Shown piece by piece: positions 2,527-27,244 of a stretch of DNA of 64,000 bases. A program made the position numbers and the translations under genes. How positions within the stretch are numbered: position 1 is the first letter of the stretch; each line of letters starts with the position of its first letter. A model generated the notes under the pieces. That model did no database searches, had not been told where the DNA came from, and saw nothing but the letters and a program-made list of their open reading frames with translations. This DNA comes from a virus. The stretch lies in IMG/VR virus record IMGVR_UViG_3300042924_005659; one strand, written 5' to 3'.

Positions 2527-2624
2527 TGCACCCGGTGGGATTCGAACCCACATTATCCGGCTTATCTGGCCGGTGCTTTAACCTGATTATAAGGCAGGCT
2601 GCTTAACCATTTAGCTACGGGTGC
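2527..2624 (-). tRNA. Atypical 98-nt tRNA-Ile with two tandem anticodon arms (UAU and GAU)
   Basis: Perfect acceptor GCACCCG/CGGGTGC-A, D arm, T arm GTGGG-TTCGAAT-CCCAC. Arm 1 is GCCTG-CCTTATAAT-CAGGT; arm 2 is CCGGC-CAGATAA-GCCGG. Confidence 0.8.
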
Positions 2625-23388: not shown

Positions 23389-23448
23389 TTTGTTTCCTGT
23401 TGCTGATGAGAAGTCCTGTCGGAACGCCCGACAGGTAAAACCCGAACT
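23389..23448 (-). repeat. Repeated ~60-bp leader, copy A (hairpin plus SD)
   Basis: TTTGTTTCCTGTTGCTG...CCTGTCG-N7-CGACAGG-TAAAACCC; near-identical to 23697..23756. Confidence 0.85.
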
Positions 23449-23692
23449 ACTTCAAGTAGTCTGGGGAATATACGTACCATCCCGCGTCGGGGATCTGTTC
23501 ATCCCCAGGCGGAAACACTTCCGCATAGAACTGCAGTTTGGGACTTTCTCCCAAAAGCGGGTATCCGTCTCTCACTCCTAATCGGGGAGAGAGATGCCGT
23601 ACTCGCTGCAAATGCCTTTTCGCACCCCTTCCAGTGCGAAATAGCAAATTGATTCGTCCGTCGTCCTTGTCTTTGAATTGAACGCAATACAT
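23447..23692 (-). CDS. Hypothetical protein
   Basis: 81 aa, bracketed by the two repeated leaders. Confidence 0.6.
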   Translation of the reverse strand: MYCVQFKDKDDGRINLLFRTGRGAKRHLQRVRHLSPRLGVRDGYPLLGESPKLQFYAEVFPPGDEQIPDAGWYVYSPDYLK

Positions 23693-23696
23693 GTTT

Positions 23697-23756
23697 TTTG
23701 TTTCCTGTTGCTGTTGAAAATCCTGTCGTAACGGTCGACAGGTAAAAACCCAAACT
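23697..23756 (-). repeat. Repeated ~60-bp leader, copy B
   Basis: Same 7-bp stem and flanks as copy A, with a different 7-nt loop. Confidence 0.85.
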
Positions 23757-23897
23757 CCTTACCTCGCGGAGCCTGGGTCGAGGGGGAAAAGATGCGGTTT
23801 AATAAGCCTCCCGCTGGAGTTCAACACTCAACAGCGGGGGCCTTGGGGGTTCTGAAAAGACCCACAACCCCCACCGGGATTGCAGGCCGTAGATGTA

Positions 23898-23971
23898 TGG
23901 GCCGGGTGGGATTCGAACCCACGCCTTATCGATTATGAGTCGACGGCTCTAGACCGCTGAGCTACCAGCCC
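23898..23971 (-). tRNA. tRNA with CAU anticodon, probably Ile2 (lysidine type); elongator Met not excluded
   Basis: GTCGA-CTCATAA-TCGAT arm resembles bacterial Ile2. G1-C72 is paired and there are no three G-C pairs, so it is not an initiator. Confidence 0.9.
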
Positions 23972-23978
23972 AAAGTTG

Positions 23979-24691
23979 AAGGTTGCTAGGCGCCGGCCGG
24001 ACGCTTTGCTCAGATAGACCTTCCGCTACCCCACACTATCCCGCAGTGGAGCGTCGATTGTTTCCTATGCAATTGCTCCATGTGCCGGTATCGCTCCGGT
24101 CCGTTATATACATGGACTGCCGCAGGTAGAAGAGAGTCGGTGTTACCCGGCCCCACAGGGGCCCTTCTCCCAATGCCTAGTATACTTGGCATCGGTTTGC
24201 TTGCGACAGCTGCTGTGGTTTAGTGCCAAGATTCCAGATCTGACTTGGCGTTTGTAGAGGTGTACCTTAGATAATAAGGCTCTACACTTTGTTGCGTTTC
24301 AAGGGGGATCAGCCAACCTTTGGTACCGAGGTGCAACTGGCTTCGGCAGACTTGACAGAGTGCGCAATCCGACGGGTTGCGCCAACGTCTACTCAACCAC
24401 ATTAGCCTGTCTTCATGTGGTAGCCTGAGCAAGCTTCAACGGGCCTAAACCCTCCACTGGCTCAAGACGGTTAATTTACGATTCAGGTTCCGTAGTCCTG
24501 AATCCCGGAGATGTGTTCGTCTCCGACCCAGACTCCTATTAACCCGGAAGTCGCGAGTTGCCATTCTCGTATGGCTGCCACTCGAGCGGAGTGACGTGTA
24601 CGGAGGAGCTCAGGTGCACCTAGCCCTCAAGTAATGCTCCTACTGAAGAAGCATAGCTTGAGGGCCAGGCCGTAGTCGTCCTACGGCCTGG
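23979..24691 (-). ncRNA. Candidate large (~715 nt) multi-domain structured ncRNA directly upstream of the tRNA; strand not certain
   Basis: No credible ORF. At least 15 helices, including nested long-range ones (23979-87/24311-20, 24329-35/24615-21, 24424-30/24608-14, 24469-75/24538-44). Confidence 0.65.
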
Positions 24692-24698
24692 TTCCTCT

Positions 24699-25040
24699 TC
24701 AGTTAGCAGAAACTGCAGCGGCAGCGGCATCCAGATCTCGGATGTCTCGCAGCCTAGTTTCCAGCATTTGCAGCGAGTACTGAATGTCTGAGCCTCGCGC
24801 TTCTCGCGCTTCTGGAGTCAGCTCCAGCCATTTCTTGACAGCTTCCTTGGAGCCGAATGCAGACATAGGCAGACAATACTGCACTAGGTCCACAATCTCT
24901 TCAAGGCATTGCCAGTTGTAGCTGTCCAGGCTGCGCTTGGCCTGGAATAGATCCCCTTCTAGTACAGCTCGAATGCCGGATCCGGGGGAAATACCGTTCT
25001 TGACATAACGCATCAGACCCTCAACTATCGCTACTCGCAT
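24699..25040 (-). CDS. Conserved phage hypothetical protein
   Basis: EGLMRYV..GI.PGS..RAVLEGDL...GS.EAV..W pattern. SD AAGGAG before ATG 25040. Confidence 0.7.
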   Translation of the reverse strand: MRVAIVEGLMRYVKNGISPGSGIRAVLEGDLFQAKRSLDSYNWQCLEEIVDLVQYCLPMSAFGSKEAVKKWLELTPEAREARGSDIQYSLQMLETRLRDIRDLDAAAAAVSAN

Positions 25041-25275
25041 GCATTTATCTCCTTTCAATGAAGATCGTAGGAGGTCCAAGCGTGTGCCTGGGCCTCGTGG
25101 CGAACCACATCGATGGGTTTCAACCTACGCAGATGCCTAATACCACCTGCAGTAAGCTCCGTTCTCGTAGGAGGCTACTCGGACCGTAGCTGGTCGTATG
25201 CTTCAACACCCACTATCGATTAGATAAAATGGGCTGTAAGCGGCCCTCTGAAAAGCTACTGAAGAGGACTATGTC

Positions 25276-25622: not shown

Positions 25623-26303
25623 TTATTTAGCGCGAGTATTTCCGCCTAAATCCATGGTCTCTATGAACGGATCTCCATCGATGACCACTCCGCAGCTCAC
25701 AATTGGCTTCTTAAGGAACGCCGCACCGTACTGCATGCTCCAGTGGTTGCGATCCACGCCGCATCCAACGTTCATTCCCCATACCTTTGCCGTAGGTCCG
25801 GCCTGGTACCATATGCCGCAGGCGCTATGGTAGTGTCCGATGACCGTATTTTGCATGCGCATCTTGGCTGCATTGAATGCAGGATGCTGACCTCCGCATC
25901 CTTCTCCGTGGTAATAGTACACTCCATCCAACTCTACGTGCTCAACCCACTTCCAGTTGTCGGTGGCGTATAGTTCATTAAATCCCTTCAGATACATCTT
26001 GGGAATACCCATTTTGGCATTTAATCTCAAGACTCGCATGTCGTGATTTCCAACCGTAACCACGGCATCAGGGAATTCTTTGTACAACTTTTGAATCTGA
26101 TTGTATGCCTGAGTGTATTCGTCTCTTGCTCCCGGGCTATCCGGATGCTTGTCGTGAAAGCTGATGCAATGATGATCCACCACGTCTCCTACGTGTATGA
26201 CCTTGTCGGTCTTCCACTTCTTGGCTACGTTCTTCAGGAACTGTATGTAGCCTTTATGCATCGCCGGAGCGTGCGTATCACCGATTACCAGGACTCTGCT
26301 CAT
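25623..26303 (-). CDS. Calcineurin-like metallophosphoesterase
   Basis: GDTH, GDVVD, GNHD, YHG and GHYH motifs. Confidence 0.92.
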   Translation of the reverse strand: MSRVLVIGDTHAPAMHKGYIQFLKNVAKKWKTDKVIHVGDVVDHHCISFHDKHPDSPGARDEYTQAYNQIQKLYKEFPDAVVTVGNHDMRVLRLNAKMGIPKMYLKGFNELYATDNWKWVEHVELDGVYYYHGEGCGGQHPAFNAAKMRMQNTVIGHYHSACGIWYQAGPTAKVWGMNVGCGVDRNHWSMQYGAAFLKKPIVSCGVVIDGDPFIETMDLGGNTRAK

Positions 26304-26379
26304 ATGTTCTCCTGTGGCTGCGGAGTGCAGCGCACGGAGCATAAGCATAGACATCGAGGCTTGTCAACTGTTGATACCT

Positions 26380-26824: not shown

Positions 26825-27244
26825 TCACGGTCTTTTGCTGAGCTCCCAGTCCAGCCGTACGTCCGGCTGCATCGGCTCCCAGCGTTTCGCCATTCGCAGC
26901 ATGGCCTCGTCGGGAACGCCGTGAATGTTCCCGAAGCTGTTCTCGCATGCGAGAATAAATACGCTATAGCCGAACTCCAGGGCGAGCTCCTGGTACGGCC
27001 GGAGTTCCCAGGCCTGGGTAAATGTATTGCTCACCCCGACCTTCTCTAGGCCAAACTCCAAGTCCTTTCGGACTTGGTCGAGGCACCACGCATGTGCCTC
27101 CTTGAGCTTGGAGGGATCGAACCTATAGACCCCTCCCTCCATAAAGTATTGGTCCGCTTCATGGAAGTCATGCCCGCACAAACTGCGGGCAAGGGTGCTC
27201 TTGCCAGATCCGGGCAACCCTCGGATGATGTACAGTGTTTTCAT
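26825..27244 (-). CDS. P-loop kinase (AAA_33 / polynucleotide kinase-like)
   Basis: IIRGLPGSGKST, EADQYF, VSNTF, HGVP motifs. Confidence 0.9.
   Translation of the reverse strand: MKTLYIIRGLPGSGKSTLARSLCGHDFHEADQYFMEGGVYRFDPSKLKEAHAWCLDQVRKDLEFGLEKVGVSNTFTQAWELRPYQELALEFGYSVFILACENSFGNIHGVPDEAMLRMAKRWEPMQPDVRLDWELSKRP

Follow-up and report, generated by a model that had tools for sequence, protein, structure and literature searches.

What is held in an ORF-free stretch of about 715 nt beside a tRNA gene in the genome of an uncultured phage? The stretch lies in the window analyzed here, 64,000 nt of a 174.6-kb IMG/VR record from lake water (IMGVR_UViG_3300042924_005659). The DNA polymerase of this phage shares at most about 25% identity with that of any cultured phage (INPHARED), and at the DNA level the tRNA is the only match among INPHARED cultured phages. 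As for lakes with this phage, 14 DNA runs contain 97% or more of the sampled words. An earlier note, made from the letters of the window, had described the stretch as one large multi-domain structured RNA, either GOLLD/ROOL-like or of a new class. Historically, large elaborate RNAs have been ribozymes, ribonucleoprotein cores or, as in the case of GOLLD and ROOL, self-assembling cages, and to our knowledge very few bacterial or phage RNAs combine a length above about 400 nt with an elaborate conserved fold. Several questions can be raised. Is the stretch a conserved RNA? How far does it extend, and on which strand? Does it belong to a known class? What could it do for the phage? As a whole, we consider it probable that it represents a new class of noncoding RNA, which would be co-transcribed with its neighbors, processed by RNase P and active in trans as a folded particle.

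On the minus strand, the gene order is a small ORF, the RNA and then tRNA-Met(CAT). The tRNA gene that had been seen to abut the stretch is identified by ARAGORN at 23897-23972 on the minus strand as tRNA-Met with anticodon CAT, elongator-like or Ile2-like; as read from the sequence, it has a G1-C72 acceptor pair and an anticodon stem without three G-C pairs. On the other side, the RNA is abutted by the stop codon of the small ORF (24699-25079, minus strand), which encodes 126 aa in the window and 96-114 aa in relatives. Searches of this ORF against Pfam and PHROG gave no family, its Atlas matches are viral hypothetical clusters only, and its AlphaFold model is of low confidence (mean pLDDT 55.7). 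Neither a sigma-70-type promoter nor an intrinsic terminator was found on the minus strand around the element. Among the neighboring genes are those for a P-loop polynucleotide-kinase-like protein and for a metallophosphoesterase. An RNA-repair link to these neighbors was considered and dropped, as the RNA ligase families PF09414, PF09511 and PF01139 have no member in the whole phage genome; the two genes are kept as context.

A homolog search by synteny and a conserved-motif scan revealed seven distinct lineages of the RNA, all from lake, river or freshwater samples and all with the order ORF, RNA, tRNA-Met, the tRNA being downstream of the RNA in every case. Conservation is exceptional: over 23897-24700 the relative L003 is 99-100% identical to the window, with flanks at 54-95%, although this identity could partly reflect recent recombination. 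No ORF within 23973-24698 is conserved across the lineages, in agreement with the description of the stretch as ORF-free. Pairing is conserved instead: compensatory double changes occur in 63 of the 124 non-redundant modeled base pairs, a count that comes in part from alignments fitted to the model. In a sequence-only MAFFT alignment, pairing holds in 95.3% of cells, and compensatory changes occur at 41 of 109 pairs, as against 19.7 +/- 2.8 in shuffles (n = 500, none reaching the observed value) and 4-10 in a second control with slid partners. The model-made alignments give compensatory pairs at 26/35, 12/22 and 24/57, with 7/19 in the 5′ hairpins; none of 500 shuffles reaches these numbers, and slid partners yield 0-8 compensatory pairs per module compared with the 7-26 observed. 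Three covariance sub-models were used instead of one full-length model, and long-range pairs were therefore examined by hand only. Models built from the L014 clade alone recover the window copy with E = 5e-13, 6e-7 and 1e-29, on the minus strand only, and match L020 and L034 too. The element is thus a conserved structured noncoding RNA, in which pairs are kept by compensation beyond the controls and no reading frame is conserved. The central reading of the earlier note, a large multi-helix RNA beside a tRNA, has withstood the comparison of homologs that it had proposed: the RNA forms a family with extensive covariation above both shuffled and slid controls.

This family is narrow. Two related phages, L021 and L041, have the same gene order and keep the tRNA-Met, with the RNA missing, and hence the RNA is dispensable for the tRNA and for the gene block; as a natural contrast within one gene order, sister phages that have the RNA and those that lack it could help to find its role. 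Neither BLAST nor the model found a match in G004, a more distant relative that is 93% complete, or in G003, a 32% complete record by which absence is not shown. Two pattern scans that covered 185,579 prokaryote species genomes did not find the RNA. An 18-mer scan gave two matches, L011 and L013, in a coding region of one unrelated phage, and a second motif scan gave one in a Ruminococcus genome that scores only 6.7 bits with the model; these were rejected as chance.

How far does the RNA extend? The whole stretch 23973-24698 folds far better than dinucleotide shuffles on both strands (z = -5.2 minus, -5.5 plus), as had been anticipated. This property resides in the conserved unit, some 475 nt of the minus strand at 24223-24698 (z = -5.09 minus, -4.6 plus). 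The folding of 23973-24222 does not surpass that of shuffles (z = -0.93 minus, -1.79 plus). This part, the insert at 23973-24223, comprises most of what had been proposed as a first structured domain closed by its own long-range helix; the proposal does not hold, as the insert is lineage-specific. It is missing from five of the seven lineages, and the insert of the window is absent or unrelated in L034, L020, L027, L028, L030, L031, L014, L015 and L026. Unrelated core-to-tRNA inserts of about 50, 118, 248 and 251 nt occur, and the distance from the conserved core to the tRNA start is 2-7 nt in five lineages. The proposal of a structured RNA of about 715 nt is therefore right as to structure and too long as to length, the conserved part being about 475 nt.

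The strand had been left uncertain, and single-sequence folding of the core, in which the two strands are about equal, does not separate them. The alignment does: read on the minus strand, paired cells include 164 G-U as against 12 A-C, stem changes among natural variants yield G-U, and the alifold energy is -92.6 kcal/mol, as against -72.0 kcal/mol on the plus strand. Together with the orientation of the tRNA and the flanking genes, these results establish the minus strand as the RNA strand. A cUUCGg loop, once taken in favor of the plus strand, is missing from a 96%-identical natural variant.

At least 15 helices and two candidate pseudoknots make up the core, with invariant junction sequences between them (all on the minus strand, described here from 5′ to 3′). 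The P0 hairpin (24665-24691) begins right after the stop codon of the upstream ORF; it is found in the window, L003, L034, L015 and L020 and is missing from the L014 clade, and its stems change in sequence with pairing kept (e.g., CCAGG/CCUGG vs. CUAGG/CCUAG). P1 (24657-64 with 24624-31) encloses P1a (24647-54 with 24634-41); this element (24624-24664) is present in every lineage, with 6 of 15 pairs compensatory. These are the two strong hairpins that had been noticed at 24665-91 and 24623-65, and both are kept in relatives. The small hairpin H2 (24611-24622; NAGG-UGCA-CCUN) lies inside a palindrome of 10-14 nt with an invariant GUGCAC core; its closing pair is C-G in five lineages; L034 has U-A there, and the window U-G. 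As a side observation, this conserved palindromic hairpin, whose UGCA loop is self-complementary, may offer a lead toward a putative homo-oligomeric cage. Next comes the 5′ strand of the candidate pseudoknot helix P3, CCUCC (24602-24606), with its partner GGAGG at 24451-24455, a pairing already proposed from the window copy and kept in relatives. At one position of P3, a C-G pair (window, L003 and L020) alternates with U-A (L014 clade, L015 and L026), and L034 has two U-G wobbles; the covarying position may be a single evolutionary event, so that P3 is still a candidate.

A row of separate hairpins follows. H3 (24577-24595) has a 7-bp stem with a wholly different sequence between lineages, 100% paired and compensatory at 5 of 7 pairs, and H4 (24560-24575), with the conserved loop ACG..A, is likewise 100% paired and compensatory at 3 of 5. 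The two-part hairpin Hi (24526-24558; helices 3 and 4 of its model-made alignment) has a purine-rich loop of 9-12 nt and an inner helix that is GACUUC/GGAGUC or GACCUC/GAGGUC, while its outer helix aligns poorly in the window copy. Hii (24506-24525; 6-bp stem, 8-nt loop) is compensatory at all six pairs and Hiii (24480-24504; invariant loop core UACGG) at 6 of 8; the earlier note had recognized both as perfect hairpins, and they are kept in relatives. An invariant CCGUC then leads to helix b (24460-66 with 24424-30; whole element 24424-24471), 100% paired and compensatory at 5 of 6, which encloses the 3′ strand of P3 (24451-55), a small hairpin (24441-52) and the conserved junction.UUGA.G; since helix b crosses the candidate P3, a pseudoknot topology results.

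Further downstream are a hairpin with a near-invariant loop core,.AGGC (24397-24420; CAGGC in the window copy; six compensatory pairs), and an element in which the invariant GAGUAG.CG pairs over an internal loop with UG.CAAGUC (24349-24394; 8 of 17 compensatory). The latter encloses a variable hairpin (24362-82) and shows R-Y covariation of 24388 with 24355 as A-U, G-C or G-U. The J7/8 junction and the invariant GUUGC...GCAAC helix (24290-24348) contain a conserved single-stranded GG.UG.U..CC and a local hairpin ACCUN/NAGGU (24316-32), of which the fifth pair is C-G, A-U or a C/A mismatch. The core ends with a hairpin that varies from 14 to 38 nt between lineages (24253-24286; 9 of 14 compensatory) and the terminal hairpin CCAAG/CUUGG (24224-24250; helix 7 of its model-made alignment). 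In the second candidate pseudoknot, the terminal-hairpin loop CUGG (24234-37) would pair with CCAG (24337-40); the pair is CCAG/CUGG in three lineages (window/L003, L034 and L020) and CCUG/CAGG elsewhere. Both candidate pseudoknots have one compensatory event apiece.

Other helices of the earlier note fared differently. GTAGAG/CTCTAC and 24225-30/24244-49 are present and kept in relatives, and GGTTAAT/ATTAACC is limited to the window's own lineage. Two of the long-range helices that it had proposed differ from those that evolution maintains. CCTGAGC/GCTCAGG (24608-14/24424-30) is possible in the window copy, but covariation in the family pairs 24424-30 with 24460-66. AGGTGCA/TGCACCT (24615-21/24329-35) is out of reach of covariation because its sequence is invariant; L020 breaks the pairing, and each strand takes part in a covarying local hairpin.

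The element is also present in RNA libraries. Contigs of four metatranscriptome runs, which are assembled and carry no ends, strand or abundance, lie on 24033-24620; the insert is covered by one of them, at 24033-24202. No joints are seen in these contigs. The same runs have no contig on 4.2 kb of flanking genes, a gap that permits no reading of relative abundance because the runs were chosen for holding the stretch and the contigs are assembled.

Does the RNA belong to a known class? Scans of Rfam 15, at gathering thresholds and at E <= 10 (the latter over 23400-25200 with permissive filters), revealed nothing beyond the tRNA. Consistent with the earlier failure to see a tmRNA or RNase P signature, ARAGORN reports tRNAs only and the corresponding Rfam models are unmatched. 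GOLLD, first seen in lake metagenomes, is similar in being a large, ornate, ORF-free phage RNA often beside tRNA genes, with a conserved and a variable part, and the context typical of GOLLD, a phage or prophage genome with tRNA genes close by, is found here. However, the GOLLD model (RF02032; gathering 150 bits) is unmatched at E <= 10, both over 23400-25200 and over all 174.6 kb of the genome; GOLLD is conserved in its 3′ half, whereas the new RNA is conserved in its 5′ part (about 475 nt) followed by a variable 0-250 nt; many GOLLD members exceed 800 nt; and in the new family the tRNA is downstream of the RNA. ROOL, for which we know of no protein partner or function, is likewise large, structured and of phage or prophage origin; it measures about 580 nt, contains pseudoknots and often lies close to tRNA islands. 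Its model (RF03087; gathering 99.1 bits) has no match at E <= 10 in the region or across the genome, and it is the scan of the region that carries weight, since the control of the whole-genome ROOL scan matched in no genome; sequence motifs and helix order are unrelated, and ROOL comes from the rumen and Firmicutes, in contrast to the freshwater phages of the new family. With the GOLLD and ROOL models unmatched, the RNA is a new class of large structured phage noncoding RNA, GOLLD/ROOL-like in context only, its newness being judged against Rfam 15; a catalogue of 2023 (PMC10690425) lists some 10,000 candidates for structured RNAs of viruses. The alternative of a new class offered by the earlier note has thus prevailed. 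A GOLLD solved by cryo-EM also adjoins tRNA-Met (bioRxiv 10.1101/2024.12.08.627333).

The new class joins the few large ornate phage RNAs. As a third unrelated, phage-borne and tRNA-joined class, it points to a general phage strategy that ties large folded RNAs to the transcription units of tRNAs. Its smaller core and well-defined comparative model make it useful for structural and biochemical work.

What else could explain these observations? The RNA might be a cis-acting leader of the tRNA-Met transcript, serving its maturation, stability or timing with no role of its own. A tRNA always follows it directly, at 2-7 nt in five lineages, with no terminator between the two. Such a leader is nevertheless unlikely: relatives keep the same tRNA-Met without the RNA, unrelated inserts of about 50-251 nt are tolerated between them, conserved complementarity to the tRNA is not established, and about 475 nt with 15 helices, candidate pseudoknots and invariant junctions go far beyond the need of any known tRNA leader. 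A ribozyme, group-I-like or new, acting on itself, the adjoining tRNA or RNA ends, is suggested by the invariant junction nucleotides between covarying helices, by the kinase-like and metallophosphoesterase genes nearby in a genome where no RNA ligase family was found, and by strand order: the P3 5′ strand, the hairpin domain, the helix b 5′ strand, the P3 3′ strand, a small hairpin, a junction and the helix b 3′ strand follow each other as in the P3-P7-P8 pseudoknot of group I introns, in which a long-range helix crosses one enclosing a small hairpin and a conserved junction. Group I introns, moreover, are 400-500 nt long and common in phages, near or inside tRNA genes. The likeness hangs, however, on a P3 with a single covarying position, and P4-P6-like nesting is missing from the hairpin row. 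Of the ribozyme and intron models in Rfam, RF00028 included, none has a hit at E <= 10 with permissive filters, nor could a guanosine-binding-site signature be recognized. The element splits no gene and has no evident exons: a stop codon of its own closes the upstream ORF, the tRNA is intact, and exon-joining contigs are absent. We regard a ribozyme as quite unlikely.

The element might instead work as DNA, as a replication origin, packaging site or recombination hotspot in which inverted repeats fold by chance. The strands fold about equally in single-sequence tests (z = -5.1 and -4.6), and, in the comparison with L003, the element is a near-identical block in a mosaic background. A role as DNA is still very improbable, given that pairing is kept via G-U, which would be A-C mismatches on the other strand (164 vs. 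12 cells), that consensus folding favors one strand by 20-27 kcal/mol, that the repeats are hairpins only, with no iterons or origin-type direct repeats, that RNA-library contigs cover the element, and that its orientation is fixed relative to the tRNA. Hardly credible is a small protein, or several, that ORF calling has overlooked. Individual copies do contain stop-free stretches of 40-122 codons, and in one relative the gene caller set a 134-aa gene on the opposite strand, but these stretches vary in frame, strand and position between lineages and share only 10-32-residue matches that track conserved nucleotide blocks; hairpin lengths differ by numbers that are not multiples of three, and substitutions are compensatory across stems.

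How would a trans-acting RNA, the reading that we prefer, be made? Most likely, it would be carried on one transcript with the upstream small ORF and the downstream tRNA-Met. Cleavage by RNase P at the 5′ end of the tRNA would then determine its 3′ end, or come close to doing so, as in MALAT1/mascRNA, where a long structured RNA also lies directly 5′ of a tRNA-like element; that system is eukaryotic and has a tRNA-like structure, whereas the phage RNA precedes a tRNA and its processing is inferred from the 2-7 nt spacing. The same spacing in five lineages lends support to the suggestion of the earlier note that RNase P defines this end. Once released, the RNA would operate in trans in the course of infection, folded into a stable particle, as is thought for GOLLD and ROOL, and might self-associate through the invariant palindromic loop of H2. 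A bolder version, an active machine, is doubtful: it would be either an RNA-only particle whose self-assembly is nucleated by the palindromic hairpin, like the GOLLD and ROOL cages, or a ribozyme on tRNA or RNA ends, working beside the conserved kinase and phosphoesterase in a phage with no recognizable RNA ligase. At the other end of the RNA, the P0 and P1 hairpins may mark or protect the 5′ terminus. Two variant contigs, which come from two riverine studies, share an end at 24619/24620, at most a weak hint of the RNA 5′ end.

Folding much more stable than that of dinucleotide shuffles on both strands was found for window 23973-24700 (728 nt; z = -5.2 on the minus strand and -5.5 on the plus strand). 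When this region was split, the signal lay in 24223-24698 (z = -5.09 minus, -4.56 plus); on the minus strand the part next to the tRNA, 23973-24222, folds like its shuffles (z = -0.93), and on the plus strand only weakly better (z = -1.79). Alignments place a conserved core at 24223-24698, running from the stop codon of an upstream ORF to a terminal hairpin, CCAAG...CUUGG. The tRNA begins 2-7 nt past this hairpin in six relatives (L020, L027, L028, L030, L031 and L034). Elsewhere the gap is wider: about 50 nt for L026, 118 nt for L014, 248 nt for L015 and 251 nt for both the window and L003. Because the inserts of different lineages are mutually unrelated and L034, the window's nearest distinct lineage (core 79% identical), has none, the "domain 1" that an earlier note had assigned to the RNA is a lineage-specific insert outside the family. 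That note was right in detecting a large structured RNA by a tRNA and in its general reading; it was wrong on the length, the domain plan and two long-range helices.

The window corresponds to bases 26115-90114 of a 174,569-bp IMG/VR virus record, estimated to be complete. Most genes of this phage lie on the minus strand, including those for a family A DNA polymerase, a ribonucleotide reductase, a DnaB-like helicase and a UvsX-like recombinase. No cultured phage has a DNA polymerase more than about 25% identical to this one, and DNA nearly identical to that of the phage is present in 14 or more metagenome runs from lakes or fresh water. On the minus strand, the region is bordered on its 5′ side by an ORF of 126 amino acids, ending at 24699, and on its 3′ side by tRNA-Met(CAT) (23897-23972).

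Homologs of the upstream ORF gave access to syntenic contigs in assemblies from ENA, JGI and Logan, and a motif scan was built from invariant blocks (CGCAACAAAG - gap - CCAAGTC - gap - GGAATCTTGG). Matches of the scan came from five metagenome records and from two viral contigs: the already known L003 and a 45.8-kb contig that is also among the metagenome records. In 185,579 prokaryote species genomes the scan gave 0 matches. After removal of duplicates, eleven distinct copies remain in seven lineages (window/L003; L034; L020; L014; L027, L028, L030 and L031; L015; L026), whose upstream ORF is 48-93% identical to that of the window. All copies keep the order ORF, RNA, tRNA-Met(CAT). Sister phages L021 and L041/L043 retain the ORF, tRNA-Met and the genes around them with only about 170 nt ahead of the tRNA, and covariance models of the RNA find no match in them; the intervals concerned (L021:2804-3127, L041:1901-2148) offer a natural presence/absence contrast. 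The distribution of this RNA class is narrow. L003, a 10.8-kb IMG/VR contig with the gene order of the window, is 99-100% identical to window 23897-24700 (L003:2560-3385; 7 differences in 728 nt), with flanking genes 54-95% identical and both edges of the near-identical block sharp. The tRNA differs more between the two (5 in 76 nt) than does the RNA core (2 in 476 nt).

Covariation among the homologs exceeds the controls. RNAalifold on a sequence-only MAFFT alignment of ten copies gave 109 pairs, with 95.3% of cells standard pairs and compensatory double changes in 41 pairs; shuffles gave 19.7 ± 2.8 (0/500 reached 41), and sliding the partners by 1-3 columns left 4-10 compensatory pairs. For proper alignment of divergent stems, three covariance models were built from the L014-type clade alone, the remaining lineages serving as tests. 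They recovered the window copy, with matches confined to the minus strand (E = 5e-13, 6e-7 and 1e-29), as well as L020 (1e-15, 2e-3 and 1e-24) and L034 (2e-11, 1e-5 and 7e-23). In the resulting alignments, which are fitted to and hence biased towards the model so that the MAFFT result is the unbiased check, 95.8%, 96.3% and 92.8% of cells are paired, and 26/35, 12/22 and 24/57 pairs are compensatory (reached by 0/500 shuffles; slid controls 2-8, 0-4 and 3-8). The 5′ hairpins P1, P1a and H2 add 7 compensatory pairs out of 19 in the plain MAFFT alignment. Counting once a hairpin shared by two models, 63 of 124 pairs covary. The stems of H3, Hii, Hiii and the variable hairpin differ wholly in sequence from lineage to lineage; their position between invariant anchors is constant.

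The minus strand is favored by several lines of evidence. Modelled pairs contain 164 G-U cells against 12 A-C cells, and RNAalifold energies are -92.6 versus -72.0 kcal/mol for minus and plus (-128.0 versus -101.0 for seven non-redundant copies). In a 96%-identical variant from two RNA libraries, both stem substitutions (24362, 24402) read as G-U on minus and A-C on plus, as does a stem difference in L003. It is also the strand of the tRNA and all neighboring genes. The cUUCGg loop cited earlier for the plus strand is cUUUGa in a natural variant. No ORF is conserved across lineages, stop-free stretches varying in frame, strand and place, and coding comparison gave only similarities of 10-32 residues that track conserved nucleotide blocks. 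Contigs from four metatranscriptome runs of four studies cover 24033-24202, 24239-24430, 24296-24619, 24312-24620 and 24396-24584; no joints were seen in them. These assembled contigs show presence in RNA libraries and carry no ends, strand or level, and their empty flanks were not counted as evidence. The element is minus-strand, conserved, highly structured and non-coding; it has a fixed place ahead of tRNA-Met and is represented in RNA libraries.

From 5′ to 3′ on the minus strand, the RNA starts with P0 (24665-91), a hairpin varying by lineage, followed by P1 with P1a (24624-64), the small hairpin H2 (24611-22), the candidate 5′ strand of P3 (24602-06) and a row of hairpins, H3, H4, Hi, Hii and Hiii (24595 to 24480), with conserved loops in H4 (ACG..A) and Hiii (UACGG). 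An invariant CCGUC separates Hiii from helix b (24460-66 with 24424-30), which surrounds the P3 3′ strand (24451-55), a small hairpin and a conserved junction. Then come a hairpin with a near-invariant.AGGC loop core (24397-420) and a variable hairpin enclosed by the invariant internal-loop helix GAGUAG/CAAGUC (24349-94). At 24290-338, GUUGC...GCAAC encloses a local hairpin together with a conserved single strand; a hairpin whose length varies (24253-86) and the terminal hairpin (24224-50) come last. From sequence comparison, two tertiary pairings are candidates, each with one compensatory event: P3 (CCUCC/GGAGG vs CUCUC/GAGAG) and terminal loop with J7/8 (CCAG/CUGG vs CCUG/CAGG). Natural variants (L003, RNA-library contigs) repeatedly alter the junction or loop positions 24344-24346, 24395, 24459 and 24566; several of these changes (such as J7/8 CCGAA to UCAAA and H4 loop ACGAGA to ACGAUA) bring the window nearer the family consensus.

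As to the long-range helices, GCTCAGG (24424-30) had been paired with 24608-14. Its actual partner is 24460-66, with C-G in L014/L015 replaced by U-A in L027; in L020 this helix is lengthened to 10 bp and the alternative partner is absent. The proposed closing helix AGGTGCA/TGCACCT is broken in L020; its sequence is otherwise invariant and therefore beyond the reach of covariation testing. The 5′ strand of this helix forms a palindromic local hairpin in which the closing pair covaries (C-G, U-A or U-G). The 3′ strand lies in another local hairpin, and there the fifth pair is C-G, A-U or mismatched.

The RNA matches no family of Rfam 15, whether gathering thresholds are applied or the cutoff is relaxed to E ≤ 10 under permissive filters: neither GOLLD nor ROOL, whose models also lack a match at E ≤ 10 in the whole phage genome, nor the group I and group II introns, RNase P, tmRNA, riboswitches or any other model. 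The likeness to GOLLD and ROOL is one of context (phage, lake, tRNA-linked, ornate), whereas sequence and fold are unrelated. In strand order, the candidate P3, helix b and the hairpin it encloses mirror the P3-P7-P8 pseudoknot of group I introns, but there is no interrupted gene, no joints and no P4-P6-like nesting, which counts against a group I intron. The RNA represents a genuinely new class among the large structured RNAs of phages.

How might it work? Since no sigma-70 promoter or terminator was found between ORF, RNA and tRNA, the three would be co-transcribed on one transcript; RNase P cleavage of the tRNA leader would free the 3′ end of the RNA, which may then work in trans as a folded particle. 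In L037, a relative of the upstream ORF (1-356) is preceded, two genes upstream, by a gene for a single-subunit phage-type RNA polymerase (PF00940); should phages of this group transcribe with a polymerase of their own, scans for sigma-70 promoters would reveal little about the transcript start. Symmetric kissing loops have been reported for GOLLD, ROOL and OLE (bioRxiv 10.1101/2024.12.08.627333), and by analogy the invariant palindrome with its self-complementary UGCA loop would be a plausible self-association site. The H2 palindrome spans 10 nt in the window, 12 nt in the L014 clade and 14 nt in L034 around an invariant GUGCAC core, and its covarying outer positions are compatible with a local hairpin or with a symmetric duplex between molecules.

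Just upstream on the minus strand lie genes for a metallophosphoesterase and a P-loop AAA_33/polynucleotide-kinase-like protein (25623-26354 and 26825-27244), which keep their position in all RNA-carrying relatives (L014, L015, L034). The pair resembles a split RNA end-healing pair, and these conserved neighbors hint at RNA-end chemistry; RNA ligase families PF09414, PF09511 and PF01139 were not found in the phage genome. Elsewhere, in a tRNA cluster at the start of the window, the Rfam tRNA model matches 98 nt at 2527-2624 (minus strand, 59 bits) where ARAGORN makes no call; this stretch is possibly a tRNA whose variable arm is long or that contains an insertion.
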